Shown here one piece after another: positions 13,689 to 51,415 of a DNA stretch of 63,430 nt (within the stretch, counting starts at the first letter, position 1; every line of letters starts with the position of its first letter). This stretch comes from an uncultured Bacilli bacterium. GTDB lineage: Bacteria; Bacillota_I; Bacilli_A; RF39; UBA660. The notes under the pieces were generated by a model. The model was not told the DNA's origin. It saw nothing but the letters and a program-made list of their open reading frames with translations, and did not search any database. The stretch lies in contig CALVPR010000002.1 in assembly GCA_944351765.1 (NCBI GenBank), positions 1-63,430 on the forward strand. Reading direction: 5' to 3'. The position numbers and the translations under genes are program-made.

Positions 13689-15443
13689 TTATACTCCAGT
13701 ATTTTTTCCAATACTTTTTAAATATAGTTTTCTAATAAAATCAAAAGGTATTACTGTAAATGATATTAATAACATTATTATAAATTCATTTAGGGTAAGT
13801 CCTCTTGTTCTAAATATATCTCCCCCATAATATATAAGATATATTTGAACAACAGCTACAAAAAGTATTACTGATAAGAATACTTTATTTTTATGTAATA
13901 ATGTAAAAAGATTCAACCTATGAGTTCTTGCATTAAAACTATTAAAGATACTTATAAATATAAATAAACCAAAGAATGCTGTAAGTAAATATTCATAGCT
14001 AGGGCTATATCTAAAGAAACTTCTAATAAAATGTGATTTCAAAAAAATAAAACATAATAATGAAGAATAAATACCTGTTACTAATATTTCATTTAACATA
14101 TAGTTATTTATGATGTTTTCATCTTTCTTTTTAGAAGGTTCTTTCATATATTCTAGTTTAGGACTTTCATACGAGAAAGCAAGGCCCGCTAATGTATCCA
14201 TTACCATATTAATCCATAACATTTGAATTACAGTAACAGGATAAGGAATTCCAATAAATGGTCCAATTATGGAAACACTAACAGCACATAAGTTTACAGT
14301 TAATTGAAATATAATAAACTTTCTAATACTTTTAAAGATTGTTCTTCCATATAGTATTGCTTTAGTAATTGATAAAAAGTTATTATCTAATATTACAATA
14401 TCTGATGCTTCTTTTGCTACTTCAGTTCCACTTCCCATAGCAAAACCAACGTCAGCTTTCTTTAAAGCAGGAGCATCGTTTACCCCATCTCCAGTCATAC
14501 CTACAACAAGATTTAATTCTTGGGCAAGACGCACTAACCTACTTTTATCACTAGGAAGAGCTCTTGATACTATTTTAAGTCTAGGAAGTATTTGTTTTAC
14601 TTTATCATCACTCATTAAATTAAGTTCATCAGAAGTAATTACTAAATCATTATCACTATTAATTAATCCAATTTCACTTCCAATAGAAAGAGCAGTATTT
14701 TTACTATCTCCTGTTATCATAACTGTTTGAATACCAGCATCTTTTACTAAACTAATAGCATCCTTACTTTCATTTCTTATTTCATCCTTTATAAATAATA
14801 TTCCTATTAAAACAATATTATTTAAACTATCTTTATTTACTGTATTATCAGAATTAGCAATAGCAATTGCTCTTATTCCGTTTTTAGTCATATTATCTAT
14901 TTTAGATAGTATTTTATCTTTTTCTTTTAATAACATTTTATTACCATATTTGTCATAACATAAATCAGTATATTTAAGTATCTTTTCAGGAGCTCCTTTT
15001 ACTAATTTAATATTCTTATTATCTTTTGATATTATTGTTATTGAATATTTATTTTTACTATTAAATGGTAACTTATATAGTTCTTTAATATCATTATTTT
15101 TTTTAATTTTAATAAATTCTAAAAGGGACTTGTCAGTTATATTTCCCCCGATTATTTTATTTTCTACTGGGTCATATATACTATCATTATTATAGACAAG
15201 ATTGTCTACTACTAGTTCTTTATATTTAGGATAATTATTTAATTCTATACTATTATTAATTTCAAGGTTGTCCCCACTGATCATATTAATTACTTCAAGT
15301 TTTCCTTTAGTAAGAGTTCCTGTTTTATCTGTAAATAAAATATTTAAACTACCTGCAGTTTCTATTCCTACTAGTTTTCTTACTAAAACATTATTTTTAA
15401 GCATCCTTTTCATATTAGAAGATAATACCAAAGTTATCATCAT
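13689..15443 (-). pseudogene. P-type cation (Ca2+-type, P2) ATPase, C-terminal ~2/3, separated from its 5' part by the ICE
   Basis: Contains DKTGTLT, TGD, GDGVNDAPALKKADVG and C-terminal TM bundles. The ATG is preceded in frame by gaa gga ctt ccg (E-G-L-P, 15444-15455) and has no RBS of its own. Confidence 0.9.
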
Positions 15444-15475
15444 CGGAAGTCCTTCTCCTTGTATGCCGTATGGAT
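15444..15475. other. Left ICE-chromosome junction (att site)
   Basis: The host sequence ends with ...cggaagtcc-ttc. The ICE arm tccttgtatgccgtatggat (15456-15475) is an imperfect inverted copy of the right-end arm. The shared core is ttc (15453-15455). Confidence 0.75.
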
Positions 15476-15486
15476 AACGAAAAGAG

Positions 15487-17064
15487 TTAAAAATTATTCA
15501 ATTCCTTAAAATTGAAGTAAATATCCAATTGTTTATCAGCATGAACATCTATTCTATCTACTAATCTTAAAATCATCTCTCTACTCGGTTCTTTCATACT
15601 TATAAACTCTTCTAATAAATTTTTATAATCTATTTCTTGTTCAGTGCTATTGTTTTCTTCTATATATTTTTCTTTTTCACTTATTTCCAATTTTATTTCA
15701 TCGATTTCCTTATATAATTTTGCACTAATTCTATTATACATATCTTCATTTATTTTATTTTCTATTTTATCCATATATATTTTATCAAGATTACTAATTT
15801 TATTTTCTTGTTTCTCTTTTAACATATTAAGTTCATGTTTTATTTTTTCTATAGGATTTTCAAATTTTAGTTTACTTGCTTCTTTTAATAATTCTTGTTC
15901 GTTTAAATAATTTAAAGCGATATTTTTAATTGTATTTATTACAACTTGTTCTAAATAATCGTAATTAAAACCATGAGATGTGCAGACATTATATTTAGAA
16001 TTCATTCTATAATAATTACATACCGTATAAGTTCTGCCATCACTTTTTCTAGGATTACAAATACCAAGTCTATGTTTACATTCATAACAAAACAATATCC
16101 CATCCAAAAGTCTATATATTTTCTTTTCACATCTTATTGATGTTTTAGGCAACATCTTCCCAACTGTTTGAAAATCATTTTTACTAACAAGTGCCTCGTG
16201 TGTATTTTCTACTATAATCCAATCTTCCTTACGATTATTAACTACTTTCTTAATTTTATAATTAACTTTACTTCTGCGATTTTGCACCATATTTCCAGTA
16301 TATAACTCATTAGTTAAAATACCTTTAATAGTTTTTTGATTCCATATTCCACTTTTTGATTCTATTGCATGATTAATACGGTTATTGACTTTACCTTTAA
16401 TCATTGCCCTAGTAGGAATATTTTCTTCAGTTAATATCAATCTAATCTGATAAGGAGTTTTTCCCTCTAATGCCAAAGAAAATATTTTTTTAACAATATA
16501 ATCTTCTTCAGGATCAGGTACAAGATGATTTTTATCATTAGGATCAATCATATAACCAAGTGGTGGACATCCACCAACCCATAAACCTTGTTTTTGTTTT
16601 GTTCGTAATGCTACTCTAATTTTCTTTGAAATATCTTTAGCATACATATCGTTAAAAACTGCTTTAAATGGTGCCATATCATTTCCTGATGAATCATATT
16701 CTGTATCAATTCCGTCAGTTACTGCAACATATCTAACTTTTTTTGCAGGAAAATATTTTTCTATAAACTCTCCAGTACCAATATAATCTCTACCTAATCT
16801 TGACATATCTTTTGTCACAACCATATTGATTTTTCCAGTTTCAATATCATTAAGCATTCTTTGAAAAGATGGTCTATTAAAATTAGTTCCTGAAAATCCA
16901 TCGTCTACATATATATCACTTATTTCATAACCTTGTTCTCTTACCCAACTTTTTAAAAACTCTCTTTGATTGGTTATACTTTCACTTTCACCTTGTTTTT
17001 CATCTTCTCTTGATAAACGAATATAGATAGCGACTTTATAATCTTTTGTTATAACGTTATTCAT
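15487..17064 (-). CDS. Large serine recombinase (ICE integrase)
   Basis: 525 aa. Resolvase catalytic domain (VAIYIRLSREDE..SITNQ), recombinase domain, Cys-rich zinc ribbon, C-terminal coiled coil. The stop codon is 12 nt from the ICE terminal arm (31 nt from the ICE/host boundary). Confidence 0.9.
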   Translation of the reverse strand: MNNVITKDYKVAIYIRLSREDEKQGESESITNQREFLKSWVREQGYEISDIYVDDGFSGTNFNRPSFQRMLNDIETGKINMVVTKDMSRLGRDYIGTGEFIEKYFPAKKVRYVAVTDGIDTEYDSSGNDMAPFKAVFNDMYAKDISKKIRVALRTKQKQGLWVGGCPPLGYMIDPNDKNHLVPDPEEDYIVKKIFSLALEGKTPYQIRLILTEENIPTRAMIKGKVNNRINHAIESKSGIWNQKTIKGILTNELYTGNMVQNRRSKVNYKIKKVVNNRKEDWIIVENTHEALVSKNDFQTVGKMLPKTSIRCEKKIYRLLDGILFCYECKHRLGICNPRKSDGRTYTVCNYYRMNSKYNVCTSHGFNYDYLEQVVINTIKNIALNYLNEQELLKEASKLKFENPIEKIKHELNMLKEKQENKISNLDKIYMDKIENKINEDMYNRISAKLYKEIDEIKLEISEKEKYIEENNSTEQEIDYKNLLEEFISMKEPSREMILRLVDRIDVHADKQLDIYFNFKELNNF

Positions 17065-17092
17065 TATTCCTCCTCTTGTTATAACAAAACCA

Positions 17093-17236
17093 TCAATAAT
17101 ATATTAACTCTTTATTGTAATCATTACAAGTCGCATCTATATTATTTTTTATAAAATTTAAAAAAAGTTCGTTCATAAGCATTTGAAATGTATATCCATC
17201 ATTTTTATAAAATGTGTTTACCTTAAATTCATTCAT
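17093..17236 (-). CDS. Small ORF (47 aa), possible excision accessory factor
   Basis: Not in the ORF track. ATG at 17236 is preceded by GAGGTGA. Translation: MNEFKVNTFYKNDGYTFQMLMNELFLNFIKNNIDATCNDYNKELIYY. It sits directly upstream of the recombinase. The functional suggestion is pure inference. Confidence 0.3.
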   Translation of the reverse strand: MNEFKVNTFYKNDGYTFQMLMNELFLNFIKNNIDATCNDYNKELIYY

Positions 17237-17362
17237 CCTATCACCTCTAGCGAAGTATATGAACTTATTTTTTTAATTATTAATAATTTTATAAAATTTC
17301 TTTTAATTCGACAATTAAATTCTATCTTTTAACCCCACTTTCTAAATTACAATTTCAATGTT

Positions 17363-17524
17363 TTAAATATGTTTTGATTCACCAAAATATTTATCCCACA
17401 AATTTATCTCATAGAATCTGCGATGATATAAAATATATTCTATTTTGGATTTATCAGGGAACATAGTTATATATCTATGTCCCCAAAATTTAATCCATTT
17501 CCATTTTAACTTTGAAAATTTCAT
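17363..17524 (-). CDS. Small ORF (53 aa), translationally coupled to the ArdC-like gene
   Basis: Not in the ORF track. Its ATG overlaps the ArdC-like stop as ATGA (17521-17524). Translation: MKFSKLKWKWIKFWGHRYITMFPDKSKIEYILYHRRFYEINLWDKYFGESKHI. Confidence 0.35.
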   Translation of the reverse strand: MKFSKLKWKWIKFWGHRYITMFPDKSKIEYILYHRRFYEINLWDKYFGESKHI

Positions 17525-18528
17525 ACACTAACACAACTCTTTTCATTATTAGATAATTCTAAATCTCTGTTGTAAAATTTCTCAAAATTATTTATTATTC
17601 TTTTAGAATAATTCACAATAGTATTAAACGAATCATCAATCTCTTTGAAATCTCTATTTTTACTCCATGAATATAAATATGTTAACGAATAATCATTTGT
17701 ATTTAATCCTAAATATTTTGCTACTGAATAAGCAATCGCTTCTGCCTCAGTCTCATATTGATTACGATGTTCTATATAATCACGATTATTATTTTCTAAA
17801 TGCTTATGAGCAAGTGAATGAGCATACTCATGTATTAATACTTTTAGTTGCATTAATGATCCTAAACCTTTACGAACTACTATTTCTTTATTTTCAAAAT
17901 CACAATATCCTTTTGCTGTTGATTCAATTTTTTTATATTTAACTTTAAAACCATCATTATAAATAGTTTTAATAAATATATCCATTATTTCTTCAGCTTT
18001 ATTATCATTAAGAATAGGATTTAATTCTTGTTTAATAATTTCCATTGGCATATTAGTTTCTTTAGCATCAAAAACATTACCTAAACTAAACCCTGATAAT
18101 TTTTGTTTATAAAAAGATATAGAATCATCAGTTTTATCTCTATATCTTTTTTTCTCATCATCAGTTAGTAAATAATAAGGTTTTATTTCGTATTTTGTAT
18201 CATCTATTTTTATTTTTGCTAAATTATAAAAATTAGGAATAAATATTTTAATTCCTTTAGCTCCTTTGTTAATTTTATAACCCATCTTTGAAAATGTTTT
18301 AAAAGAAGATACATATTCAGCATCAGGATTTTGCAACCATATTAATATTTGATTATTAAATGAATAATTATTAAATTTTAAAATATTATCTAAAAACTTT
18401 TTTATATCACTTTTACCTTGAAATTTATTGAAAGCTTCTTTTTTAAGATTTAATAAAATATCTTTTAATTCATTTTCTATATTATCTTTTTCTTTTGTAT
18501 CTTTTGATTTTCTAAACTGAAAACCCAA
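17521..18528 (-). CDS. ArdC-like antirestriction protein (ssDNA-binding N-domain plus HExxH metallopeptidase)
   Basis: 335 aa with C-terminal LIHEYAHSLAH. The N-terminal region resembles ArdC-N. The probable start is further upstream at ATA 18559-18561, after AGGAGGG. Confidence 0.6.
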   Translation of the reverse strand: MGFQFRKSKDTKEKDNIENELKDILLNLKKEAFNKFQGKSDIKKFLDNILKFNNYSFNNQILIWLQNPDAEYVSSFKTFSKMGYKINKGAKGIKIFIPNFYNLAKIKIDDTKYEIKPYYLLTDDEKKRYRDKTDDSISFYKQKLSGFSLGNVFDAKETNMPMEIIKQELNPILNDNKAEEIMDIFIKTIYNDGFKVKYKKIESTAKGYCDFENKEIVVRKGLGSLMQLKVLIHEYAHSLAHKHLENNNRDYIEHRNQYETEAEAIAYSVAKYLGLNTNDYSLTYLYSWSKNRDFKEIDDSFNTIVNYSKRIINNFEKFYNRDLELSNNEKSCVSV

Positions 18529-18572
18529 TTCATTTATTTTTTTTAATTTTTCTTCTATTATAATTATCCCTC

Positions 18573-19142
18573 CTAAATATTAATTTTATCTAGTTCTATT
18601 TCATCATAATCGTAGTAGTTATAATGAATATTACCCAATTTTTCCATTTCATCTGACAAAGTTATATCACATTTACTGAATGTTTTATTTTTATAATCAT
18701 AAGACAAATTTATTTTATTATTGTATTCATTATCATTTATTCTTGATAAAAATAACTTATTATCATAATCAGCATTAAAATAAATATCGAAACTCCAATC
18801 ATAATTGTTTACAAGATTATTCAACTCTAACACTTTATCATATAATTCTTTTTCTAACAATTTATAATCATGATTATTTATTGATTTAAAATTATGGTTA
18901 TTCACAAATATTTTAAATTTATCATTATATTCTAACCATTTATTTGAACTTTTTAAAAATGTAATTGCAAACTTTCTTGCATCATTTATTTCATCATCAG
19001 TAAGATCATGTATATCATCATGCAATAGAAAAGCATACTTACTTAATAAATCGATAGTCATAAGGTCAACTTTATCTAAATTATATATTCTGCTTACAAG
19101 TTCTCTAATTTCACTATTTATAATTTCTTTTATAAAATCCAT
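18573..19142 (-). CDS. Acidic hypothetical protein (ICE)
   Basis: 189 aa, D/E/N-rich, tightly packed in the ArdC operon. No motif recognised. Confidence 0.4.
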   Translation of the reverse strand: MDFIKEIINSEIRELVSRIYNLDKVDLMTIDLLSKYAFLLHDDIHDLTDDEINDARKFAITFLKSSNKWLEYNDKFKIFVNNHNFKSINNHDYKLLEKELYDKVLELNNLVNNYDWSFDIYFNADYDNKLFLSRINDNEYNNKINLSYDYKNKTFSKCDITLSDEMEKLGNIHYNYYDYDEIELDKINI

Positions 19143-19143
19143 T

Positions 19144-19698
19144 TTATATTTTCATATTCCTTTCACAATTATTAATTAATACATTTAATTTGTCAGATAC
19201 GATTATCCATCTTGCAGGTATTTCACATTCCAAATACAAAGCTTTATCATTTAAAATTGTTTTTAATGATTCTTCTATACTTTCTAAACAATTATCAAAA
19301 TCTTGACCTCCATAATAAAATTCTTCATTTTCATCAACAATATAAAACTTGTTATCCTCTTCAACTAAATGGAAATTGTAAAATCCCTGATATGTATTAT
19401 TCATATTTTTTAATTTTTCTATTATTCTATCTTTTATATGTTTAATATCTTCTTTTCCGTTATCATCTACAAAAGTATAATTTATGTGAGTATTTCTAAA
19501 CTTCTCATCACTTAATAATCTATCTATTTTACATAATACTTCAATGTTAGGGGCATCATATATTAAATAAGATTTACCCTCATATATAATACCACTACCT
19601 GTTTTTTTTAATTCATCAAAAAAAGGAACTTCACTTTTTTTTACAATAATATGATAAGTTCCAATTCTCAATACAAAACTTTTATCATTCAAACTCAA
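19144..19698 (-). CDS. Hypothetical protein (ICE)
   Basis: 184 aa, lying 1 nt from the next ORF. No motif recognised. Confidence 0.4.
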   Translation of the reverse strand: MSLNDKSFVLRIGTYHIIVKKSEVPFFDELKKTGSGIIYEGKSYLIYDAPNIEVLCKIDRLLSDEKFRNTHINYTFVDDNGKEDIKHIKDRIIEKLKNMNNTYQGFYNFHLVEEDNKFYIVDENEEFYYGGQDFDNCLESIEESLKTILNDKALYLECEIPARWIIVSDKLNVLINNCERNMKI

Positions 19699-19704
19699 TG
19701 CCTC

Positions 19705-20295
19705 CTAAATTTTTATATCTTTACTATCGTTATTATTAAAAGAAATATCGTATTCTAAATTGTCATATATAAATTTTTCTAATCTTTCTTTCATATTTAA
19801 CATAAGTGTTGTATCACTACCCAAATTTAATTTAACTTCCTCAAAATAAAAATTTTCTATATCCCCATTATCTTTTTCACTAGAATAACGAAGTCCCATC
19901 TTTCCATCTAGTATTATTAAATCACACAAATATTTTTCATCTATATCCCAAAATGTTGCTAAATCATAATAATCTTCGTAATCTAAATCTTTAGCATCAA
20001 TTTCTATTCTTCTTATATCTTCAATATTGTAATTACTTTTAAATTTATAGTGATTACCTTTAAAAATTTTATCTTTAAATATATATTTTAATTTTTTAAA
20101 CACATAATCTACTGCTCCATCATAATCATCACATTTAAAATATTTAGCTGATTTCCATGCAACATCATTAAACATATCATTTATATCAGAACAAGATCTA
20201 TCTGCAGTAATAACCATAATGTTATCACTATTTCGAGATTCACAAGCCCATATTAATAGTTCATTATCAGTGGCAGGTTCATAAACAGTAAGCAT
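19705..20295 (-). CDS. Hypothetical protein (ICE); N-terminus probably extends to 20430
   Basis: 196 aa from the ATG. The same frame stays open for 45 more codons up to ATA 20428-20430, placed 6 nt after AGGAGGG. Confidence 0.4.
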   Translation of the reverse strand: MLTVYEPATDNELLIWACESRNSDNIMVITADRSCSDINDMFNDVAWKSAKYFKCDDYDGAVDYVFKKLKYIFKDKIFKGNHYKFKSNYNIEDIRRIEIDAKDLDYEDYYDLATFWDIDEKYLCDLIILDGKMGLRYSSEKDNGDIENFYFEEVKLNLGSDTTLMLNMKERLEKFIYDNLEYDISFNNNDSKDIKI

Positions 20296-20441
20296 TAATC
20301 CTTGTTCTCTACAATTATTAAATGTTTTATAATATCCCTCTAAATTATCTGATGCATTTTTAAGTTTTTCTTCTAATTTATTAAAAAAAGTTTGACTAAC
20401 TTCGAAACTCCTATTTTTTGTAATATTTATATTTATCCCTC

Positions 20442-21017
20442 CTAAATTTCAATATCTTCATCAAAAACATCAATTTCTTCAAAACTATTTCCATATTGGT
20501 CGGTTGGCTCAATATATTCACACATAATAGAAAGTGCCTCTTCATAACTATGTGAATTGGTAACTCTATTTACCATTTCTTTTGCTTGGTCATGATAACC
20601 TGCTCGTTTTAAGGCTCGAGAACATATCGCAATTAAATTAAACACATTCCCATCGGCTCCAACTATTGGTGCTTTTGGTTTTTTATTAATTTCTTTAACA
20701 TCCTTTAAATAATTATCAATATAGTCCGATAACCACATTGCACCAAGATCATTTCTTATTTTTAATCTAAATATTGCCAAATTCCCCATATCAATATTTT
20801 TATTATTAAGGGCAAAAGCAAGATTGGTTGCTCCTTCTTTTTCAAAAGAATATATTTCATCAAAAGAAAAAGAATCAGGTACGATTCTATTATCTTTTAA
20901 CATATTAGTTATTCCATCAACCCATTCATCAAGATTACCTCCACAACCTTGTAAAACAAGAAAATCATAATTTTTATTTTTTAATTTCTTTACTTCATCT
21001 AATTTTAATTTTTTCAA
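20442..21017 (-). CDS. Hypothetical protein (ICE)
   Basis: 191 aa. TTG start 6 nt after AGGAGG. The C-terminal segment VGADGNVFNLIAICSRALKRAGYHDQAKEM looks like a small helical module but was not identified. Confidence 0.4.
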   Translation of the reverse strand: MKKLKLDEVKKLKNKNYDFLVLQGCGGNLDEWVDGITNMLKDNRIVPDSFSFDEIYSFEKEGATNLAFALNNKNIDMGNLAIFRLKIRNDLGAMWLSDYIDNYLKDVKEINKKPKAPIVGADGNVFNLIAICSRALKRAGYHDQAKEMVNRVTNSHSYEEALSIMCEYIEPTDQYGNSFEEIDVFDEDIEI

Positions 21018-21028
21018 TATTATCCTCC

Positions 21029-21283
21029 TTATATTTTTTTATTTACATTATCCATATTTGGATCTGCTTTTTTAATTATTTTGAAATGATCCTCACCAAC
21101 AATAAGTCCTAATGAAGATCCATTTTCCCAATCCACAAATATAGTACCTGCATCATCAACAAAATCAACTTCCCCTCTTGTTCCACTAGGAACTGCTTGA
21201 CTATCATTCATATATATTAATTCAATTTCAGTTCCTTTTGTATACAAACTTTTTATTCTTTCTATTTCATATTCTTTTAACAA
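21029..21283 (-). CDS. DUF4314-like small protein
   Basis: 84 aa. GTRGEVDFVDDAGTIFVDWENGSSLGL matches my recollection of the DUF4314 core seen on Firmicute conjugative elements. Confidence 0.45.
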   Translation of the reverse strand: MLKEYEIERIKSLYTKGTEIELIYMNDSQAVPSGTRGEVDFVDDAGTIFVDWENGSSLGLIVGEDHFKIIKKADPNMDNVNKKI

Positions 21284-21392
21284 AAAAATCCCTCCAATTC
21301 AAATTACATTTTATACAAAAAAATTATATTTAATAACGACTTCATTCTTGTATTAATTATTAAAGTTAAATAATACATATTATAAATGTAAA

Positions 21393-21425
21393 AAAACTAG
21401 TATTCATAAGTTGATTACTAGTTTT
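21393..21425. terminator. Bidirectional hairpin terminator
   Basis: Perfect 10-bp stem aaaactagta / tactagtttt with a 13-nt loop. A- and T-runs flank it. Confidence 0.5.
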
Positions 21426-21433
21426 ATTTATTA

Positions 21434-21632
21434 TAATTACTGTTTAAAAAATCAAATATTTCATTAAATAAATTTGTCTCTTTATTTGCTTTAATAACTT
21501 TTATTTATAACTCTTTAACACTATTAATATATTCCCAAGCATTCTTTCTAAATTATTTTCTTCTTCCGTCAAATCAATGTCTTTTTCCGTCACTAAAATT
21601 CCAATTAAATCAAATGCAATATCTTTAATCAT
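21434..21632 (-). pseudogene. Internally deleted remnant of a HAD-hydrolase gene (paralog of 51557..52108)
   Basis: 21540-21632 aligns with 52016-52108 (N-terminal ~31 codons). 21434-21505 aligns with 51557-51630 (C-terminal ~25 codons). The ~385-bp middle part is missing. Confidence 0.7.
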
Positions 21633-21709
21633 CATTACTCTCTCTAATTACTATGCCACAAAAACTATGCTTCTACAATAATTAATAAAGTTTAACAAAA
21701 TATAACTTT

Positions 21710-22150
21710 TTATTTTTTTCCACACAATTCATCTATATCTATCTCATATAATTCAGACAATAAAATAAGTCTATCAATAGGTATTTTAATTTTACCTTTA
21801 AAATATCTTTGACAAGTAGCACCTGTACATTTTAAATATGAAGCAATTTCATCATAAGTATTTTTATTTTTTTCTTTTAGTTTGCATAAATTCTTTAACA
21901 CTTTATTATAATTCATTTTTTTTATATTTAAATTATATTCTAGTTTTTTGTTTAGCCCTAAAATAAAAGATAAATCAACTTTATAAAACATAGATAATTG
22001 GTCTGCTATATCAATAGGTATCATTACAATACCACGTTCCCAATTATTATATGTTGATCGACTACATTTTAATATTTTTGATATCTGATCTTGTGTTAAT
22101 TCTTTTTCATTTCTTAATCTTTTAATGTTATTAATATACATATACATCAC
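21710..22150 (-). CDS. XRE-family regulator with two HTH units
   Basis: 146 aa. HTH units: LTQDQISKILKCSRSTYNNWERG and TYDEIASYLKCTGATCQRYFKG. Confidence 0.6.
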   Translation of the reverse strand: MMYMYINNIKRLRNEKELTQDQISKILKCSRSTYNNWERGIVMIPIDIADQLSMFYKVDLSFILGLNKKLEYNLNIKKMNYNKVLKNLCKLKEKNKNTYDEIASYLKCTGATCQRYFKGKIKIPIDRLILLSELYEIDIDELCGKK

Positions 22151-22271
22151 CTACAATAATTTTCTCATTAAGTGTACACAAAATGATACTTTTGACTAAT
22201 GTACGTAAGAAATTTACAAAAAAAGTAAAAAATTGTGGTATAATAAAAAAAGAAATAGCAAAATATCATTG

Positions 22272-22532: not shown

Positions 22533-22675
22533 CGTATCACCTACACTTAATATGATACGATTTTATTTAAACTATAACCACAACCTAAATTGTCAAGTTG
22601 ATTTATACTAATCTTTTTAACATTTTGAAAGAAAGGAGGCAATATTATCTTTAAATTGGCTAAAAATCATTTAAA

Positions 22676-23165: not shown

Positions 23166-23238
23166 TTTAATTTTTATTTATAGCTTAAACAGTAATTGAA
23201 ATTTGTAGCAAAACCTTAACAAAAAAAGGATGTGAAAA

Positions 23239-24931: not shown

Positions 24932-24959
24932 CTACTTATTCACTTATTAATAAAATATA

Positions 24960-42487: not shown

Positions 42488-42564
42488 ATCTTATCACCTC
42501 CCTCAAATTAATATTTAGTTTTTTTATAATGAGTTCCCTATAAACTCATAAAAAAAAGATGAAC

Positions 42565-43092
42565 TTAATCATCTTCCTCACAAAACTTTTTTAAATCTAT
42601 CCACATTTTTACAATACAACTTTTCTTTATTTTTTGTAAATACGACTTAGATACACCAATTATTTCAGCAATATCATCTTCAGATTTATGTGCTAAAAAA
42701 GTATTTATTAAATATATTGCCTCATCACCAGTTAGTTTTAAACTTAAAATCATAATTGTATTGTAAACATTAGTCGTATGAAGTTGTTTATCAGTATATT
42801 TTTGAATTGCTTGTTCAATTTTACTTACATTATTTCTTTGAGTAAATCCTCCCAATTTTTCATCATAATTTGCAGAAATACTTATGCTACATTCAACAGG
42901 AAATTCATATAAATATCTTGCAGATTTGAAAGAAGTAAATAAACTTTGTAATTTTTTCTTAATTTCGATAATATTATAATTATTACAAATATTTTCATCT
43001 AATAATATATTATATACTTTATTCTGCTCCACATAATTTGAAATATTTTTACTAATATTTAATAATTGATCTAATGTTACAATGCCATTCAT
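42565..43092 (-). CDS. Sigma-70 region-4-like HTH regulator
   Basis: 175 aa with the C-terminal HTH EDDIAEIIGVSKSYLQKIKKSCIVKM. The rest is divergent. Confidence 0.4.
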   Translation of the reverse strand: MNGIVTLDQLLNISKNISNYVEQNKVYNILLDENICNNYNIIEIKKKLQSLFTSFKSARYLYEFPVECSISISANYDEKLGGFTQRNNVSKIEQAIQKYTDKQLHTTNVYNTIMILSLKLTGDEAIYLINTFLAHKSEDDIAEIIGVSKSYLQKIKKSCIVKMWIDLKKFCEEDD

Positions 43093-43318
43093 TGTTTATC
43101 CTCCTTTCAACAAAAAAGAGATTTTAAGGGCAAAAAACTCCACTATAAAATCTCTTCAATAGAAAAAGCATATTTTAAATTCCGATCTTCTAACAATATT
43201 CTGTTAGTAATTAATAAGTTGTCATTACTGTTCATAATTCAACTCCCCCACAAATTTGCCATTTATTTTAATAATTTTTTTAATGTTTGTCAATGCTTTT
43301 GGAAAAAAATGGAAAATA

Positions 43319-43353
43319 AAAATGAGCATCTCAACTGAGATTTAACTCATTTT
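43319..43353. terminator. Imperfect hairpin terminator downstream of the Gfo-like gene
   Basis: aaaatgag..tctca-ac-tgaga..ctcatttt. Confidence 0.4.
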
Positions 43354-43462
43354 ACTACATTATACTACTTGACAATTTTTTTTCAATAAACTAAATCGTA
43401 TGAATTTAATATTTAAAAAGTGTTTAAATAGTGTTTGAAAAGTATTTAAAAAGTATTTTTAT

Positions 43463-45184
43463 TTAATAATTTTCAACCATCTTTTCAATTAATGATACTT
43501 TTTTATTTCTAATGATATATTCTAAATATTTAAAATATAAATATGCACTTTTTTTATTTTTAAAAGTTTTACTTAATAACCCACCTGCAACATCTTTTGT
43601 GTCATCTATTGAAATAAATACTTCGTAGCATTTTTTTTGTGGAATATATCTTTCAAATGCATATAAAGTATAGATATCATTATAATACATACTACTATAT
43701 ATTTCTTTTTTTTCTAAATCACGATCTACGATTTTAGAATAATTTTTTAATCTTTTCGCTATAAAACGATATGTATAATCATTTCGTATGTCAATAGTTT
43801 CTATTTTATTAACCTTTGAATAATAATTATGAATCCCTTTAGCACAGGAATATAAAATTTCTATTGCAAGAGCTTGATCTCTTATGTCGCCTTTACAATC
43901 TTCATTATTTAAAAACTTTTCAATAAATATTTCTCTTGACAACTCATTATACCCCAAGAATTCTTTTTTTTCTTCATCAGTATACATATCCCCTAAACTT
44001 ATTTTTTTAAAAGGAACTTTATCTACTAACGGATTACTAAATATAAATATATCAAAATGTTCTAATCCCCCAACATTCTCTTCATCATTTGTCCTATCAC
44101 TTATTTCTTTTGATTGATAACTATGAACTTGTATATTAAATAAATGTCCAATTTCTATGTTAATTCTTTCATGTCTTATTCTCCCATTTTGTTTATAAAA
44201 ATCTTTTGTTTTAATCCATGCTCTTCTTGACACACCATTATGTAATAAATTTAAATTTGCAGTAGTTATGGTAAATCCATCTTTATTATAAAAAGATAAT
44301 AATCCATGATAATCTTTTTCACCATAGTAATCAAAAGTAGGTTTATCATTTTTTTCATAATAATCAGGAATATCTTGATTTTTAAATATTCTTTTATAAT
44401 CAGATACATTTAATATATTTATCTCATCATTGGGAGTAAATACTTTTGAATATACATCTCCATAGACAATTTTTTTATTATCACTTAATGAATCATTTAT
44501 TTTAATAAAATCACTTAACAAATCTATAAAATGATATCCACTATGAAATAATTTCCCATAACCATATTTGTATGGATGATTTTCTTTTTCCATATCGTGG
44601 GGCATTTCCCAAGCACCATCAGAATGAAAAATATCTATATTAGTTATTGGCATTTTAAATTTATCAACAACTTGAATAAGCAATTCTTTTATTTTTTCGT
44701 ATCCACGATGGTATTGCCTTTGACACATGACCTTACAAGATCCTTTACTAGTTTTAGCAAGCTCTAAAATTTCGTAATATTGTTTTCTTATTTTTTCTAT
44801 ACTAGATAATGATGTCATATTTTTACTAACTGTAATAGGTTTATCAGTTAAAACATTTATATTATTCTTTAATGCAAAATTCAAATACATAAAATGTGCT
44901 TTAGGTTCAGTAGAAATAATTAAATGAGTTATTTGTAGTTCATCACATTTTAGCTTTAATTTATTAAATATTTCAATAGGTAAATAATTATTATCTTTTA
45001 AAGAATCATCTATTATAAATATTTCAGTGGTGTTAAAACCATTTTCTTCTAAATATCTCTTTGTTATATCTTTTTGTGAAGCCAATTCAACAACTAATGC
45101 TAAATTAATTTTATGCTTTTTAAAAAAATTCATATATATTCTTTTAGCATGAGCTCCAACACCTACTAAAGCCACATTTTTCAT
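43463..45184 (-). CDS. Gfo/Idh/MocA-type NAD(P)-binding oxidoreductase domain fused to a ~200-aa unknown C-terminal region
   Basis: 573 aa. Rossmann start MKNVALVGVGAHAKR and ...NNINVLTDKPITV. The C-terminal third has no recognisable motif. Confidence 0.5.
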   Translation of the reverse strand: MKNVALVGVGAHAKRIYMNFFKKHKINLALVVELASQKDITKRYLEENGFNTTEIFIIDDSLKDNNYLPIEIFNKLKLKCDELQITHLIISTEPKAHFMYLNFALKNNINVLTDKPITVSKNMTSLSSIEKIRKQYYEILELAKTSKGSCKVMCQRQYHRGYEKIKELLIQVVDKFKMPITNIDIFHSDGAWEMPHDMEKENHPYKYGYGKLFHSGYHFIDLLSDFIKINDSLSDNKKIVYGDVYSKVFTPNDEINILNVSDYKRIFKNQDIPDYYEKNDKPTFDYYGEKDYHGLLSFYNKDGFTITTANLNLLHNGVSRRAWIKTKDFYKQNGRIRHERINIEIGHLFNIQVHSYQSKEISDRTNDEENVGGLEHFDIFIFSNPLVDKVPFKKISLGDMYTDEEKKEFLGYNELSREIFIEKFLNNEDCKGDIRDQALAIEILYSCAKGIHNYYSKVNKIETIDIRNDYTYRFIAKRLKNYSKIVDRDLEKKEIYSSMYYNDIYTLYAFERYIPQKKCYEVFISIDDTKDVAGGLLSKTFKNKKSAYLYFKYLEYIIRNKKVSLIEKMVENY

Positions 45185-45275
45185 TATAATTCCCCCTGAT
45201 GGTTATTTATTATAAAGCAACTTTAGTTATTTCAATAAAACAAAAAAAAATAGTGCTATGCAAAATTGACTAGCA

Positions 45276-45869
45276 CTACTTTTTTAAATAATTATCAATA
45301 TAATATTTTAATATTTCAAAGTCTCTTCTTACAATGAATTTTGTATGATAAACACTTTCATATTGTGAACTTACTAATTTACTCTCTGATTCCTTAATAA
45401 GTTTTAATGCTTCATTTATATCAAGCCATAATAATCTTGAGCCTTCATCAATTTCTTTTTGAGTAAAATTAACGTTCCCATTATCATTTATAACATTAGC
45501 AACATAAACATATGATGTTTGTCTAAAATTATCTTGAGATTTATATTCTTCAGTAATCCCTAAAAAATCTATTATTTTTATTTCACATCCAGTTTCTTCT
45601 AAAACTTCTCTTTGAAAAGCATTAGCAGGATCTTCATCTGTTTCAATACCACCACCAACTAATTTATATTCATTTTTTAATTGTTTATTCAATATAGCAA
45701 TTTTACCATCATTAAAGACTATTCCCCTAGCTCCAAATCGTTGCCTTGGATTCACCATTTTAATAGATGTTATTCCAAAATCTTCATCAGTTATTTTTTT
45801 TATACATATCATATTAATTATCTCCTTATAAATAAAATTCAAAAAATTTATACTAAATATTGTGTCCAT
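45276..45869 (-). CDS. NUDIX hydrolase
   Basis: Nudix box GGGIETDEDPANAFQREVLEETG. The likely true start is ATG 45812 (MICIKKITDEDF), after AAGGAG. Confidence 0.8.
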   Translation of the reverse strand: MDTIFSINFLNFIYKEIINMICIKKITDEDFGITSIKMVNPRQRFGARGIVFNDGKIAILNKQLKNEYKLVGGGIETDEDPANAFQREVLEETGCEIKIIDFLGITEEYKSQDNFRQTSYVYVANVINDNGNVNFTQKEIDEGSRLLWLDINEALKLIKESESKLVSSQYESVYHTKFIVRRDFEILKYYIDNYLKK

Positions 45870-45920
45870 AAAAGAAAAAACAACAAATATTTCACAAATT
45901 GTGTTTTTCAGCCTTTTTAA

Positions 45921-46481
45921 TTACCAAAAACAATTATCTACATTTACATTCTCTATTTCAAGAACATTTATTTGAGCAAAAGGTCCACCATTTCTTGAAA
46001 TATTTCCGTACTCATCATAATCATAAAAATATATATTTAAATATTCATAATTATATTTAAAAAAACCTCCTGTTTTAAATTTATATTTTCTTAATTCTTG
46101 TAATACATTATTAGTTATATCTTTAGCTTCTCTTTTTATTACCTCTTTATCAAAACTTCCGATTGGATAAAGAGATATTTGTAAATATGGGTAATGTGAA
46201 GTAAAACCCTGATATTTGTAAACTTCATTATTGCTAGTAATACTATTAAATATTTCCCCAATCTTTTCTCCATAGTCTTTTGAACTAATATCCAATATTT
46301 CTTCTTCATTTTTTGAAGGTTCTTCTTTTACATCTGATACTCCATCAATATTTATTGTATTTTCATCATCTACTTTTTTGTCATCTTCTAAATCGTTATT
46401 ACAATTTGTTATATTCAAAACAATTAAGGTACACAAAATAATTATTAATAGTTTTTTTTTCATATTTTTTCTCCATTTCAC
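45921..46481 (-). CDS. Secreted protein or lipoprotein, unknown function
   Basis: 186 aa. Signal-like LLIIILCTLIVLNITNC (non-canonical lipobox). Confidence 0.4.
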   Translation of the reverse strand: MKWRKNMKKKLLIIILCTLIVLNITNCNNDLEDDKKVDDENTINIDGVSDVKEEPSKNEEEILDISSKDYGEKIGEIFNSITSNNEVYKYQGFTSHYPYLQISLYPIGSFDKEVIKREAKDITNNVLQELRKYKFKTGGFFKYNYEYLNIYFYDYDEYGNISRNGGPFAQINVLEIENVNVDNCFW

Positions 46482-46542
46482 TCAAATTTTGTTAATTTTT
46501 CAAATATATTATATCATAAAAAAATTGATAAAATTTAAATTA

Positions 46543-47436
46543 TCAATCTTCTATTACAATTTTAATAAAATCTTTTGCCACTTTATTAATTGTTTTTTTA
46601 GAATAAATGATTCCGATTGAATTTATAGGCATTTCTTCTTTTAACTTAATCTTAATCAAATCATATTCTTTTACTTCTTCTTCAATAAAATAACCTATAA
46701 AATCATTTTCTTTTATAAAATCTGCCATTAATTTTGAATCAGGCATTGAATGAGTAGCAATTAACTTAATGTTATTCTTTTGTAAAATTTCATCTAACAT
46801 TTGTCTTCTACGAGAATTTCCTGATATGACCAATGTATAATTAGACAAATCTTTTAATGATTTAACATCATTCTTAATTTTTTCATAAAAAGATTTAGAA
46901 CAAGCAAAACAAGTTTCATATTGATGAATAGGTTTTACTTCAAAATCAAATTTTTCACTATAGTTTATATGGGGTAAATAATCTACTAAAATATCAATTT
47001 TATGTTGTAATAAGAAATCATTTAAGTTTGTTGCACTATCAGTGTTTATTTTAATTTTTACATTAGGATATAATTTAGTAAATTTATTTAAATATTTAGC
47101 AAGAGTAAAATCTGCAATGTTTCTAGTTGTTCCTATTGTTAATACTACATCTAAATTAGTAGATAACTGACTCGCTGAAAAGATGTCAATGCTATTGAAA
47201 AAATCATCTAATTGTTTATATAACCTCTCCCCATCAAGAGTTAACTCAAATCCCTTATTATTAGTATTAACTAATTTAAGATCTAAAATCTGTTCTAATT
47301 GCTTAATACTTCTAGTTAAACTAGATTGAGAAACATTATTTTTTCTACTAGCATCAGAATAGCTTTTTTCTTTTGCTGTAATATAAAAATCATGATAATA
47401 AATAAAGTTATTTCTTAAATCATATAATTCAAACAC
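46543..47436 (-). CDS. LysR-family transcriptional regulator
   Basis: 297 aa. N-terminal wHTH (FYITAKEKSYSDASRKNNVSQSSLTRSIKQLEQ) plus a LysR substrate-binding fold. Divergent from the protease gene. Confidence 0.8.
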   Translation of the reverse strand: MFELYDLRNNFIYYHDFYITAKEKSYSDASRKNNVSQSSLTRSIKQLEQILDLKLVNTNNKGFELTLDGERLYKQLDDFFNSIDIFSASQLSTNLDVVLTIGTTRNIADFTLAKYLNKFTKLYPNVKIKINTDSATNLNDFLLQHKIDILVDYLPHINYSEKFDFEVKPIHQYETCFACSKSFYEKIKNDVKSLKDLSNYTLVISGNSRRRQMLDEILQKNNIKLIATHSMPDSKLMADFIKENDFIGYFIEEEVKEYDLIKIKLKEEMPINSIGIIYSKKTINKVAKDFIKIVIED

Positions 47437-47949
47437 AACATCACCCCTAAATATGCTTTATATAATAAATGAAAATAAAAAAAAAGTCAAGTATATCAAC
47501 TTGTTAAACAAAATAAAAAAAACGATTATAGCGTTGATAACTTGCCAAAAAATTCTGATGATAAATAAATTGTTTTTATTGGGAATTTGGTAAATAAGGA
47601 GAATTATTAAGAATTATTCAAAAAACATATTATTTAAGATTTATTTATAAAACTTTAATTTGCCATTTCAATAATCTTATAAGATACATAAATATTTAAA
47701 TTATGTTATTAATACTAATTATATAGTTATTGTTTATTTATTATTTTAAAAAATAAAATATGTGTAAAGTTATAAAAAAAATAAAATATTTTAATGAAGT
47801 GTGATATAATTAAAATAGATATGAGCAGTATTAGTATCTATGATAGGTAGTTACTCAAAAAAAACTCAAATATTTATCGTTAATGAGTCTAATCTCTATC
47901 AGGTTAGGTGGTGAGAAAAGAAAAAGATATACAATAAAATTTTTGAAAA

Positions 47950-49212
47950 ATGAAAAGGAGGAAAAAAATGAAAAAATTTTTCAAAAAATTTACTATTTTA
48001 TCATTCACTGCACTTACTTTAATATTTAACATTATTCCTGTTAATGCATCAGTTAACGAAAACAAAAATAATAAAGAATATGAAGAATATCTTGAACGAA
48101 ATTGGTCTATGGTTCAATTAGCTACAAAAGTAGAGAAAAAAATTAAAGATTACTATAATATAGAAAAAACTTATGAAGATGAATATCCATCTTACTTCGG
48201 TGGAATTTATATTAATGATGATGCTACGTCATTAATAATTCAAATTGTAAAAGAAAATATTCCATTAAATAATACAGAAGAATATAATTTTTATAATGAA
48301 CTTATAAATTTAGATAATAGTATTGAAATAGAATATGTTGAAAATTCATTTAATGCCTTAAATGATATAAATAATCATGTTGGTGCTTATATTATGTCAA
48401 AAGAATCTTATGATGATAATTTAACAGGTGCGTATATTGATGTAATGAATAACACAACTATTATTGAATTAGTTGATAATACTGAGGAACAGCAAGAAGC
48501 TATTATTAAAGAGGTCTTTGGCTTAACTAATTATTCTAAATTTAAAGCAAAATCAAATCAAAATATTGAGAATAGTTTAATTACTTTTAGAAAAAGTGAA
48601 GAAGCTTCTTCTCACCAAAATATTAATGCAGGAGCAGAGATTTCTGTTGGACAGTTTCTTTGTTCTATGGGATTTAGAACAACATATAATGGAAAAAAAG
48701 GTTATGTTACAGCAGGTCATTGTGTTAAGGGATTAAGCTCTGTTCAAGCTGGATATGTTAGATTAGCTCAATATTCTAATAATGAAAGATATGATTACGG
48801 ATTTGTAGAAACTTATTCATCATATACTCCTACAAATACTTTAGCATATTCAAGCGGCAATGTTACAAAATTAGGTTTGGTAAATTATTGCCCTGTAATT
48901 ACTGTAAATATGGAAATAGCTAAATCAGGTATGAAAACAGGGTACACTAGTGGAAAAGTACAAGGATTAAATCAAACTATTGAATACACAAAAAATAATA
49001 TAACTCTAAAAGGTATGGTAAAAAGTAATGTTAAATGTGATAATGGGGATAGTGGTTCACCAGTATTTATTCCTAGAACTGATGCTAATGGAGGAGCAAT
49101 ACCTGTTGGTATATTAAGTGGTGGTAGTACTGGAATTTTGGGAATAGGAAGAACTATGTATTTTACTGATATTAGTGATTTACCATCAGAACTTCAATCA
49201 GGAAGATATTAA
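47950..49212 (+). CDS. Secreted S1 (chymotrypsin-fold) serine protease with an alpha-lytic-type pro-region
   Basis: 420 aa. Signal peptide, a pro-domain-like YFGGIYINDDATSLIIQIV, TAGHC (His) and GDSGSP (Ser). Confidence 0.7.
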   Translation: MKRRKKMKKFFKKFTILSFTALTLIFNIIPVNASVNENKNNKEYEEYLERNWSMVQLATKVEKKIKDYYNIEKTYEDEYPSYFGGIYINDDATSLIIQIVKENIPLNNTEEYNFYNELINLDNSIEIEYVENSFNALNDINNHVGAYIMSKESYDDNLTGAYIDVMNNTTIIELVDNTEEQQEAIIKEVFGLTNYSKFKAKSNQNIENSLITFRKSEEASSHQNINAGAEISVGQFLCSMGFRTTYNGKKGYVTAGHCVKGLSSVQAGYVRLAQYSNNERYDYGFVETYSSYTPTNTLAYSSGNVTKLGLVNYCPVITVNMEIAKSGMKTGYTSGKVQGLNQTIEYTKNNITLKGMVKSNVKCDNGDSGSPVFIPRTDANGGAIPVGILSGGSTGILGIGRTMYFTDISDLPSELQSGRY

Positions 49213-49250
49213 TATAAACAGGAATAAATAAGAAAAAACAATTTTATTTT

Positions 49251-49295
49251 AATAGGGGCTGTATGAAATTATTCTGTTTCATAACAGCCCCTATT
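49251..49295. terminator. Strong bidirectional terminator
   Basis: aataggggctgtatgaaa / tttcataacagcccctatt, an 18-19-bp stem. Confidence 0.7.
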
Positions 49296-49552
49296 AAATA
49301 ATCTTTATCATATTTGTTTCTCCAATTCATCTTTTTCCAATAATTTATAATTATCATTATCTATTGCCTCTAATATATCAGAATAATTTATATTATCAAG
49401 TTTACTTAAAAAATTATTATCATTTGCATAACATTCTGCTAAAAAATATGCAATACTACTAGAGGATAAATTATAATATTCATCATTTAAATATAGATCA
49501 TATGCTATTTTCTGAATCTCTTTGACATTTCATCATCAAATAGTATTTCTCT

Positions 49553-49622
49553 ATTATTAGAAATAGTAATCTATTTTTTTTATTTTTTATACAAAAGAAA
49601 ATAGATTACTATTTCTAATAAT
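49553..49622. repeat. 25-bp perfect inverted repeat with a 20-nt spacer
   Basis: attattagaaatagtaatctatttt (49553-49577) / aaaatagattactatttctaataat (49598-49622). Confidence 0.85.
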
Positions 49623-49657
49623 CTAATTTAAAATTTAATTAAATATAATAAATTAAT

Positions 49658-50167
49658 TTAATCAATATATTCAGAATTAGCACATTGTTTTAAATTAACA
49701 TTAATATCCTTTAAGAACTCTTCAAGATATTTATTATTTTGTCCTTTTTTAACAACATATTTATAATGATATCCTTCTTCTATATATGGATTTCCAACTA
49801 TCATTTCATAGTCAAATGAATCATTATCTGAAGATGTTATATCATTTGCACTAACACTATTTTCTATTATTTTTTTTAAATCATAATTATATGTTCCCTT
49901 AATAGATTTTGTATATTTTAACGCCAAATTACAAGTTTCCAATGGTTTACAATCTTCATAAGCTGTAAATAATTCATAATTACCATCTGCATATAAATTT
50001 AGATAAATAGGCACACAAGATTCATTACCCATTGATATAGATAATATTGTTTCAGCATGGTCTGATAACGGTTCATCTCCTCCTAATTTATTTTTTGTAC
50101 TTCCACAACCTGAAATGCCAACTACCATAACCCCACATAATAAAATAGTTAATATTGTTTTTTTCAT
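49658..50167 (-). CDS. Lipoprotein, unknown function
   Basis: 169 aa. Lipobox VVGISGC. Confidence 0.55.
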   Translation of the reverse strand: MKKTILTILLCGVMVVGISGCGSTKNKLGGDEPLSDHAETILSISMGNESCVPIYLNLYADGNYELFTAYEDCKPLETCNLALKYTKSIKGTYNYDLKKIIENSVSANDITSSDNDSFDYEMIVGNPYIEEGYHYKYVVKKGQNNKYLEEFLKDINVNLKQCANSEYID

Positions 50168-50464
50168 AAATCCTCCTTATAACAAATATTATTTATCTAC
50201 TATTTTCTTCAATAAATATTATATCATTTTTAACACAAAAAAAATAGCCCTATACTAGCAACTATCTACTACTATTTACTAATTTGTCTCAAGAAGTAAG
50301 ATGTATAATCAATAAAGTAAAATGGTTCAACAACGAGAAAAGTTATAATCTCATTGCATATTAATAATAACATAAATCAACTTTTTTTATTAAATTTTTT
50401 CTATATATCTTTTTAAATATATTCTAAATAATTATTAATAAATCAGTAAAATTTAATAAAGAGA

Positions 50465-50494
50465 AATAAAAAAACATCAACAACAATTGTTGAT
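50465..50494 (-). terminator. Terminator just inside the ICE right end
   Basis: Stem atcaacaa (50476-83) / ttgttgat (50487-94). On the minus strand it is followed by a T-run (A-run 50465-74 on plus). Confidence 0.5.
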
Positions 50495-50530
50495 ATCTTG
50501 ATGGTTTTGTTATTAATTATAATAATTTCA

Positions 50531-51415
50531 TCATCCATAAAGGAAACAAGGTTCCGGAACTGCTACTACGATTACTGCAACACTTAAAGTTAACGCTTCA
50601 AGGAGATAACCAAATAAAAGAGGAATATTAGTTACAGTATCTATAATTTTAGTTATATTAAAGTTATTTTCAATTACTATGTTAGAAAATAGATAAGAAA
50701 TAGACACTAATATAGCAGCAATATAACCTAATTTACTTATCGTTTTAGCTAGTTTATTCAGTCTTAATTTAAGTGGAGATGGGAGTGCTTTTTCTTCTAA
50801 TTCACTAGCAAGTTTTCCATAAAGAGTATCTGCTCCTATTTTATTCACTTTCATTAAAGCATATCCATCATATACAACAGTACCCCTATAAACTAAATTA
50901 TTATCTTTGACATTATTTAAGTTAATTGCCTTTTCTTTATATTGTTCTTTAGTTTCTCCATTCATCATTGATTCATCTACAGTAATACTACCCGATACAA
51001 TTATTCCATCACTAGGTATCTTATCACCAGAAGATAAGAGGGCAATATCATCCATTACTACTTCATCTATGTTAATTTCTTCTACTTTTCCATTTCGTTT
51101 AACACGACATTTAATTTTAGAGGATTCTTCTTGGAGTCTAACAAAGGCTTTTTCTGAACCATACTCTGATATTGTTGAAATTAAAGATGCTACTAATATA
51201 GCTACTGCTATTCCTATTGTTTCAAATATATCAAAGTGTCTAAATAAAAATATTACTTTAACAGCTAGTACAATTAACAATATTTTAATAATAGGATCTC
51301 CTAAAGTTTCAATAAATAGATGAAAAAAGGTATTTTTTCTTGTTCTTATTATTTCATTAGTACCATATTTTTTTCTTTTTTCTATTACTTCATCGTTAGA
51401 TAAACCATTAGTCAT
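50531..51415 (-). pseudogene. P-type cation (Ca2+-type) ATPase, N-terminal ~1/3, truncated by the ICE
   Basis: Cation_ATPase_N-like start (LSNDEVIEKRKKYGTNE), TM1-2, the actuator domain, and TM3-4 ending ...LSVAVIVVAVPE. Six ICE-encoded codons follow (PCFLYG, then stop). Confidence 0.9.
50533..50560. other. Right ICE-chromosome junction (att site)
   Basis: ICE arm atccataaaggaaacaagg (50533-50551), core ttc (50552-50554), then host sequence cggaac... Confidence 0.75.

Follow-up and report, generated by a model that had tools for sequence, protein, structure and literature searches.

A probable integrative conjugative element in the PEGLP codons of a Ca2+-ATPase gene of an uncultured gut Bacilli bacterium

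The window analyzed here is the whole 63,430-nt stretch of contig CALVPR010000002.1, from an uncultured low-GC (about 24%) gut Bacilli bacterium of the RF39 group. Very probably, the window holds an integrative conjugative element (ICE) that used a site-specific large serine recombinase (LSR) to insert into the PEGLP codons of a Ca2+ ATPase gene. Among the evidence for this reading, the two gene fragments at the ends of the 35.1-kb insert join into one intact pump, the uninterrupted allele exists in nature, and the same insertion point is occupied in divergent hosts.

The interrupted ATPase gene and its empty sites

The open reading frame (ORF) at 50531..51415 (-) ends in ...VAVIVVAVPE (LSVAVIVVAVPE) and then runs into PCFLYG-stop. 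The ORF at 13689..15443 (-) begins MMITLVLSS and has GAA GGA CTT CCG in frame directly 5' of it. A GAA is common to the two junctions, and removal of 35,099 bp in silico leaves a single 2,628-nt frame of 875 aa with no internal stop. A first-pass annotation of this DNA had reported these ORF positions, their sequence ends, and the position of the LSR gene, and had joined the halves at GAA into one PEGLP-containing 875-aa frame. All of these hold on re-reading of the window.

The joined protein was compared with known P-type pumps. It matches TIGR01517, the PMCA-type (P2B) Ca2+ ATPase equivalog, at 575.9 bits (curated cutoff, 507.05 bits) in one collinear stretch covering residues 2-859, in agreement with the reconstruction. 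It also aligns collinearly through PEGLP (...AVIVVAVPEGLPMMITL...) with the plant PMCA-type pump ACA8 (8qmp, E = 1.5e-119), as the alignment to PMCA-type ATPases proposed in the first-pass annotation had anticipated. PEGLP in transmembrane helix 4 (TM4), DKTGT, TGD, and GDGxNDxP are all present and align with the ACA8 and PMCA structures. Family membership points to Ca2+ as the transported ion. As read from the sequence, the insertion would almost certainly inactivate the pump, and the simplest reading is that the host is without it until the ICE leaves.

The intact gene is found naturally. Protein P0002 in the protein database is uninterrupted and 100% identical to the reconstructed 875-aa protein. 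Its locus, L100, comes from another metagenome and is free of the ICE. L100 aligned with the in silico excised window at 99.5% identity over 17,413 nt, was gapless at the junction, and contains the predicted 63-nt attB verbatim. Its neighbors are those of the window: a HAD hydrolase upstream and LepA, RNase R, and a MiaB-like gene downstream. BLAST of empty loci against the window gave two high-scoring segment pairs (HSPs), one ending at 50552 and the other starting at 15455, that overlap by exactly GAA (3 nt). Empty sites that abut both window flanks with this 3-nt overlap were detected in L001, L002, L003, L100, and L101.

A scan of one genome per species recovered 80 full-length homologs, all of them single genes of 860-880 aa with none split (0/80). 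The best intact homologs among the species representatives are 98% (L001) and 97% (L002) identical. The insertion is polymorphic within the window's species, because many intact 875-aa members and several split 584-aa members coexist in one 90% protein cluster of that species. An occupied locus (L084) and an empty one (L001), from different samples, have a common downstream context at 98% identity. The uninterrupted orthologs and the repaired attB that the first-pass annotation had said should be sought thus both exist (P0002 and L100, with the 80 single-gene homologs). It had also named two contrary outcomes, a non-collinear alignment and halves that occur as independent genes; both were checked, and the results favor a split gene.

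Synteny breaks right after the ATPase stop codon (window 13609-13689). The window and L100 continue with lepA. L001, L002, and L084, with ATPases 97-98% identical, continue after the stop with a 113-aa ORF, a methyltransferase, a XerC-like integrase, and thymidine kinase.

Attachment sites and the recombinase clade

The attachment sites were read from the sequence. The attP site is TTATCCATACGGCATACAAGGA-GA-ACCTTGTTTCCTTTATGGATGA, with 22-nt arms that are symmetric about GA at 16/22 positions. The predicted sites are ...GCAGTTCCGGAAGGACTTCCGATGATG... for attB and ...CATACAAGGAGAACCTTGTTTCC... for attP. Natural variation was used to map the crossover. At nine attL junctions, the base before GA varies among hosts (C, G, T, or A), and the base after GA belongs to the element. 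In hosts L082 and L087, where the Glu codon is GAG, attR has a G after the dinucleotide, which makes the third base host-derived. The attL of a related element (L108/L192) reads GAT. Because the host bases vary on the outer sides of GA and the related attL has GAT, the exchanged core is the dinucleotide GA. GA is not palindromic, and the insertion therefore has one orientation everywhere, with the LSR gene adjoining the 3' part of the ATPase gene. All four natural sites (attP, attB, attL, and attR) are thereby fully resolved for an LSR lineage of uncultured gut Bacilli that had not been described.

All 80 intact homologs encode xVPEGLP. They agree with the window attB at 34-45 of its 52 positions, with mismatches mainly at third codon positions, which indicates many potential hosts. 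Protein constraint holds the PEGLP-coding DNA nearly invariant across species and would account for a broad ICE host range. The DNA that encodes the universal PEGLP motif serves mobile elements as a broad-host landing pad, and every one of the 80 species representatives has a usable-looking site.

The LSR has the Pfam domains PF00239 (E = 2.3e-27), PF07508 (E = 3.7e-21), and PF13408 (E = 4.7e-08), and DUF4368 is below Pfam significance. Residues R16 and S18 are invariant in 17 relatives. The best solved-structure match of the catalytic domain is TnpX (2mhc, E = 2.5e-32), and the best full-length solved relative is SprA of SPbeta (9dxh, E = 1.2e-21), aligned over residues 12-476. The catalytic mechanism is presumably that known for the LSR family.

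Related recombinases were examined for their neighbors. LSRs that are 75, 67, 60, and 54% identical to that of the window each lie directly upstream of a Ca2+-ATPase C-terminal fragment that begins at PEGLP. Their cargo is unrelated: an arginine/agmatine catabolism island, another ICE, a 4.9-kb element with UbiA and a 602-aa protein, and a radical-SAM/PmbA cluster. Among relatives 31-54% identical on metagenome contigs, 0/80 loci have a Ca2+-ATPase fragment beside the LSR, so ATPase targeting stops short of these relatives. The comparison delineates an LSR clade that, by its genomic positions, is devoted to the PEGLP site of Ca2+-ATPase genes.

An ORF of 32-50 aa lies directly upstream of the LSR gene in every ATPase-targeting element examined, with the consensus M-x-EFKVN..F...G..F...M..L...FIK. 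This small ORF probably belongs to the recombination module and is a candidate directionality factor. Together with the LSR it would make a candidate minimal recombination module and a testable pair of integrase and recombination directionality factor. A resemblance of the small ORF to TnpW-like proteins was also considered and was rejected; a Pfam scan returned no match even at E = 1.

One clade member was caught in an attP configuration. Two independent samples, L106 (5560-5680) and L107, contain the attP-type junction GTCATCCATACGATATACAAGGA-GA-TAATTGTGTTCTATATGGATGAC of a related ICE whose LSR is 67% identical. There, GA connects the LSR-proximal arm with an arm that is homologous to the left end of the window ICE, and element genes follow. 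An unintegrated or tandem form of a clade member therefore exists. The integrated copy of this relative (L105) has one extra A beside the core. The first gene after attP in L106 was compared with window 42565-43092 for sigma-factor homology, and the similarity was not significant.

Host spread and gene content of the element

Same-site occupancy was assessed on 46 contigs that encode an identical or ≥90% identical LSR. Twenty distinct places are listed for them, each of which represents contigs with mostly identical neighboring genes. The collection indexes the identical 525-aa LSR in 43 blocks and its 90%-cluster variant P0387 in 31 more. In 20/20 of the listed places, the same element-side attR arm leads into ATPase sequence that encodes PEGLP-MM. 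The 3' ATPase fragment is readable over 169 aa or more in 16 of the 20, and these fragments fall into four lineages that are 50-64% identical to each other and have differing downstream genes. At the other end, the identical 169-aa left-end protein is indexed in 152 blocks. A 5' ATPase fragment precedes it in each of the eight loci with enough upstream sequence, and a ninth (L099) shows the attL junction. The attL-side fragments fall into five groups whose identity to the window is 59-100%. Identical LSR and left-end proteins at the same nucleotide of divergent ATPases indicate that one ICE recently entered at least four to five divergent hosts. At the level of sequence comparison this implies recent horizontal spread across host lineages with ATPases 50-71% identical, and conjugative transfer is the probable route. 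The pattern points to active spread of one ICE through divergent gut lineages, none of them with a cultured member in the records retrieved.

The first-pass annotation had also described the element as conjugative with a terminal LSR. The genes for the relaxase, the coupling protein, and the VirB4-type ATPase, by which an ICE is recognized, all lie inside the 35.1-kb insert, together with a VirB6-like gene and the LSR with its domains. No phage structural genes were found in the insert. The relaxase shares no more than 27% identity with any plasmid of PLSDB; for the LSR, identity to INPHARED phage LSRs does not exceed 33%. Because both are so distant from these entries, the element is assigned to an undescribed lineage of a familiar kind. 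The five repeats upstream of the relaxase operon may be an origin of transfer (oriT) or an operator.

Table 1. Coordinates of the split ATPase gene, the attachment sites, and the ICE genes in the window.
Feature	Position	Strand	Remarks
5' part of PMCA-type Ca2+ ATPase gene	50552..51415	-	Codons 1-288, the last being the Glu codon of PEGLP
Annotated ORF of 5' ATPase part	50531..51415	-	Extends 6 codons past the gene break into the element
3' part of ATPase gene	13689..15455	-	E-G-L-P-MMITL... through stop; DKTGT, TGD, GDGVNDAPAL motifs
ICE body	15456..50551	-	35,099 bp including one GAA core; empty-site BLAST HSPs abut
attL crossover dinucleotide GA	50553..50554	-	First two bases of Glu codon; GAA repeat 50552-50554
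attR crossover dinucleotide GA	15454..15455	-	GAA repeat 15453-15455
attL element-side arm (P' arm), ACCTTGTTTCCTTTATGGATGA	50531..50552	-	Imperfect inverted repeat with arm 15456-15477
attR element-side arm (P arm), TTATCCATACGGCATACAAGGA	15456..15477	-	
LSR	15487..17064	-	Resolvase, Recombinase, and Zn_ribbon_recom domains
47-aa ORF directly upstream of LSR gene	17093..17236	-	Conserved in six clade elements of differing cargo; candidate recombination directionality factor
ArdC-like anti-restriction protein	17521..18528	-	ArdcN and M78 peptidase domains
Two Xre-type helix-turn-helix regulators	21710-22150, 22272-22532	-	Face divergent small ORFs 22676-23487 (+); likely regulatory module
Type IV coupling protein, VirD4/TraG type	26041..27792	-	T4SS-DNA_transf, E = 7.5e-62
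MobL-family relaxase	28406..29851	-	E = 1.2e-29
Five AATGTACAC-type repeats	30456..30809 (30456-30517, 30740-30809)		1.2-kb non-coding stretch upstream of relaxase operon
M23 peptidase, cell-wall hydrolase of transfer apparatus	31040..31534	-	
VirB4-type conjugation ATPase	31606..33963	-	TraG P-loop/AAA_10
NikA-like ribbon-helix-helix protein	33996..34286	-	Relaxosome accessory candidate
VirB6/TrbL-like membrane protein	36662..37924	-	pLS20_p028 and Mycoplasma ICE families
Sortase	38102-38722	-	
Thioester/SpaA-domain surface adhesin	38694-40565	-	
N6/N4 DNA methyltransferase	41684..42487	-	
Left-end cargo	43463..50167		573-aa protein (Rossmann-fold N-terminus), NUDIX hydrolase, LysR regulator, trypsin-like protein (+), 169-aa putative lipoprotein

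The conjugation operon includes an Imm51 immunity-protein homolog and a DUF4313 protein (34601-35020 and 35123-35614); no toxin to go with Imm51 was identified. Matches to families defined on Mycoplasma ICEs (NF045848 and NF045889; weakly NF045849) and on pLS20 were obtained for the VirB6-like protein and for a 79-aa pilin-like protein (41344-41583). These matches fit a link between Mollicutes-related and Bacilli transfer systems.

Reduced and altered copies of the ICE were seen at several loci. L096 and L097 are derivatives of the same ICE that are without about 24.5-49.3 kb, the entire conjugation module. L088 is apparently a much-reduced derivative with the left end, regulators, HAD, and LSR. 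In the 1.68-Mb long-read contig L092, an IS110 has inserted into the ICE, and the methylase is truncated. Such a series suggests that the ICE decays toward small intervening elements that are not conjugative.

Several stretches of the ICE resemble the chromosome beside it. At 21366-21644, the ICE has two HAD hydrolase gene remnants that are 75-85% identical to the chromosomal HAD gene (51495-52118) just upstream of the ATPase, and L088 (2751-3363) has a complete HAD gene that is 94% identical to the chromosomal copy. Upstream of the ATPase, short chromosomal remnants match the ICE NUDIX gene (52241-52415 with 45659-45835, 81%) and the ICE LysR gene (55782-55861 with 47008-47085, 94%), and they keep the ICE order and orientation. 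The LysR-like remnant is also found at the ICE-free loci L100 and L002, the second of which has the NUDIX-like remnant too. ICE cargo and chromosomal flank seem to have common ancestry.

Elsewhere in the window, a Bro-N domain protein, a type often associated with phages, is encoded at the right edge (62427-63296). The sole Rfam or ARAGORN match in the window is a tRNA-Ser(GCT) at 6799-6889.

Proposed mechanism, alternative readings, and known systems

LSR biochemistry and the anatomy of the site suggest how the arrangement could arise. The terminal LSR would recombine attP with an attB made of the ...V-A-V-P-E-G-L-P-M-M-I-T-L... codons of TM4, through a 2-nt staggered cut on the GA of the Glu codon. 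Integration would part the 5' half of the gene (A domain, TM1 to half of TM4) from the P and N domains and TM5-10. The reverse reaction between attL and attR would restore the ATPase gene scarlessly, probably aided by the conserved 47-aa ORF. The first-pass annotation had predicted such a repair; on paper precise recombination does rebuild the gene, and the rebuilt sequence is that of P0002 and L100. The excised circle would then undergo conjugative transfer through the MobL relaxase, the VirD4-type coupling protein, and the VirB4 and VirB6-like apparatus. In the window organism, the site is probably a target of convenience for the element, not a regulatory switch evolved by the host.

Some observations weigh against this account. 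The candidate role of the 47-aa ORF comes from its position and conservation, and the ORF has no Pfam match. No circular or attP form of the window ICE was found: its exact attP junction had 0 matches in JGI metagenome contigs (37-mer) or IMG/VR (22-mer), and no attP-type context of this ICE was present among the 46 contigs read for ≥90% identical LSRs.

Spore-forming relatives raise the question of a function for the interruption. L192 (JGI 3300031555; 3280-10707) and L191 (JGI 3300029305) are endospore-forming low-GC Bacilli with CotJB, CotJC, YunB, and YutH in the flanks. The Ca2+-ATPase gene is split by LSR elements in 24/24 L192 contigs and 18/18 L191 contigs, and the related elements appear fixed in both. 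The L192 element is about 4.9 kb and carries UbiA, a 602-aa protein, a 47-aa ORF, and the LSR only. The LSRs of L191 and L192 are 58% identical and their host proteins 53-91%; in a test of co-divergence, these values are compatible with old vertical inheritance and with independent insertions. The LSR clade and its small ORF could be a Ca2+-ATPase interrupter that was domesticated in endospore-formers, where it would excise at sporulation to rebuild a YloB-type pump for Ca-dipicolinate loading, with the window ICE as the still-mobile ancestral state. We regard this proposal as speculative and rather unlikely. The interrupted genes listed in PMC10747680 and PMC4191935 include no Ca2+-ATPase. 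If the proposal is true, a Ca2+-pump element joins the known sigK/spsM/spoVFB/spoVR/gerE/yabG set, and the spore-forming relatives are the place to test a skin-like role in a Ca2+-pump gene directly.

A switch at the level of the window's host is improbable. Excision would be regulated by Ca2+ stress, growth phase, or differentiation, and the pump would be rebuilt when needed, as in skin/sigK, SPbeta/spsM, and A118/comK. The insertion is polymorphic in the window's species, short of the fixation that characterizes intervening elements, and the ICE has entered several hosts only recently. No sporulation genes were seen in the window flanks examined, and serine-integrase ICEs generally disrupt genes with no switch function needed (PMC4701971). 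What speaks for a switch is that excision would be scarless and in frame and that a conserved small ORF, possibly a directionality factor, adjoins the LSR gene. The interrupted form is also the sole form seen in the spore-formers L191 and L192 (18 and 24 contigs), the nearest intact homolog of the L192 fragment is 85% identical, and the YloB Ca2+ ATPase is reported to be important for sporulation (PMC12999246). For the window locus, the analogy with skin/sigK or active lysogeny drawn in the first-pass annotation is not supported.

A naturally split pump, in which two polypeptides reassemble and the insertion is free of cost, is very improbable. Both fragments keep open frames, and the 3' fragment opens with ATG-ATG right after PEGLP, 43 nt beyond the stop codon of the LSR gene. 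The frames are still open because the insertion is recent (0 differences in 875 aa from the intact allele), the break falls inside the unwound TM4 ion-site motif, and the 80 species-representative homologs are single genes; the split-pump reading was rejected on these grounds. A chimeric contig that joins the ICE to gene halves has next to no probability and is effectively refuted: the window does come from a metagenome-type assembly, but identical junctions recur in dozens of contigs that were assembled independently in different studies and from different samples, one of them the 1.68-Mb long-read contig, and these junctions have the anatomy expected of LSR att sites.

The favored interpretation, a mobile ICE at a conserved coding site, was compared with the closest known systems. 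TnpX, the best structural match of the LSR catalytic domain, and TndX are the transposases of Tn4451 and Tn5397, and they use a GA crossover dinucleotide, as the window ICE does. They belong to the multi-targeting clade of LSRs, many of which have DUF4368 (PMC10083194). Strict site specificity in every place examined sets the window LSR apart.

The sporulation intervening elements (skin/sigK, SPbeta/spsM, vfbin/spoVFB, vrin/spoVR, gin/gerE, and yin/yabG) and A118/comK are alike in that an LSR element lies inside a coding sequence and its precise excision rebuilds the gene. Those elements are prophage-derived, occupy genes of a terminal cell or special niche, and have excision that was shown to be regulated. 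The window element, in contrast, is a complete ICE, is polymorphic, and has no sign of sporulation in the flanks examined.

Among LSR clusters in general, 83-88% are site-specific for conserved genes, with one to three conserved gene clusters targeted (PMC10083194). The LSR clusters that use one conserved coding site (comM/Mg-chelatase and prolyl-isomerase; Durrant et al. 2022, PMC10083194) resemble the present clade in three-domain LSR architecture and in the combination of diverged LSRs (54-100% identical here), unrelated cargo, and one site. The site in the window is the ion-binding PEGLP motif itself. In the text and supplementary material examined, that paper mentions neither a Ca2+-ATPase target nor the window LSR clade. 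A literature search returned no relevant report of ICEs in RF39, or of a P-type or Ca2+ ATPase gene occupied by an ICE or LSR.

The streptococcal and clostridial single-LSR ICEs (for example, those with rumA, mutT, and hsdM targets; Tn5252/Tn1549 groups; PMC4701971) are alike in the terminal serine integrase, the site-specific insertion into a widespread protein gene, and the disruption of that gene. All 29 of 29 streptococcal serine-integrase ICEs disrupt protein genes, mostly site-specifically, and the direct repeat is 2-8 bp in the streptococcal and clostridial ICEs (PMC4701971) and 3 bp in the window ICE. The window ICE differs in its target, a Ca2+ P-type ATPase that is new in the literature searched, in a distant conjugation module, and in its uncultured gut Bacilli hosts. 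New overall are the PEGLP ion-site codons as a target, an LSR clade devoted to them, the conserved small partner ORF, and the host group.

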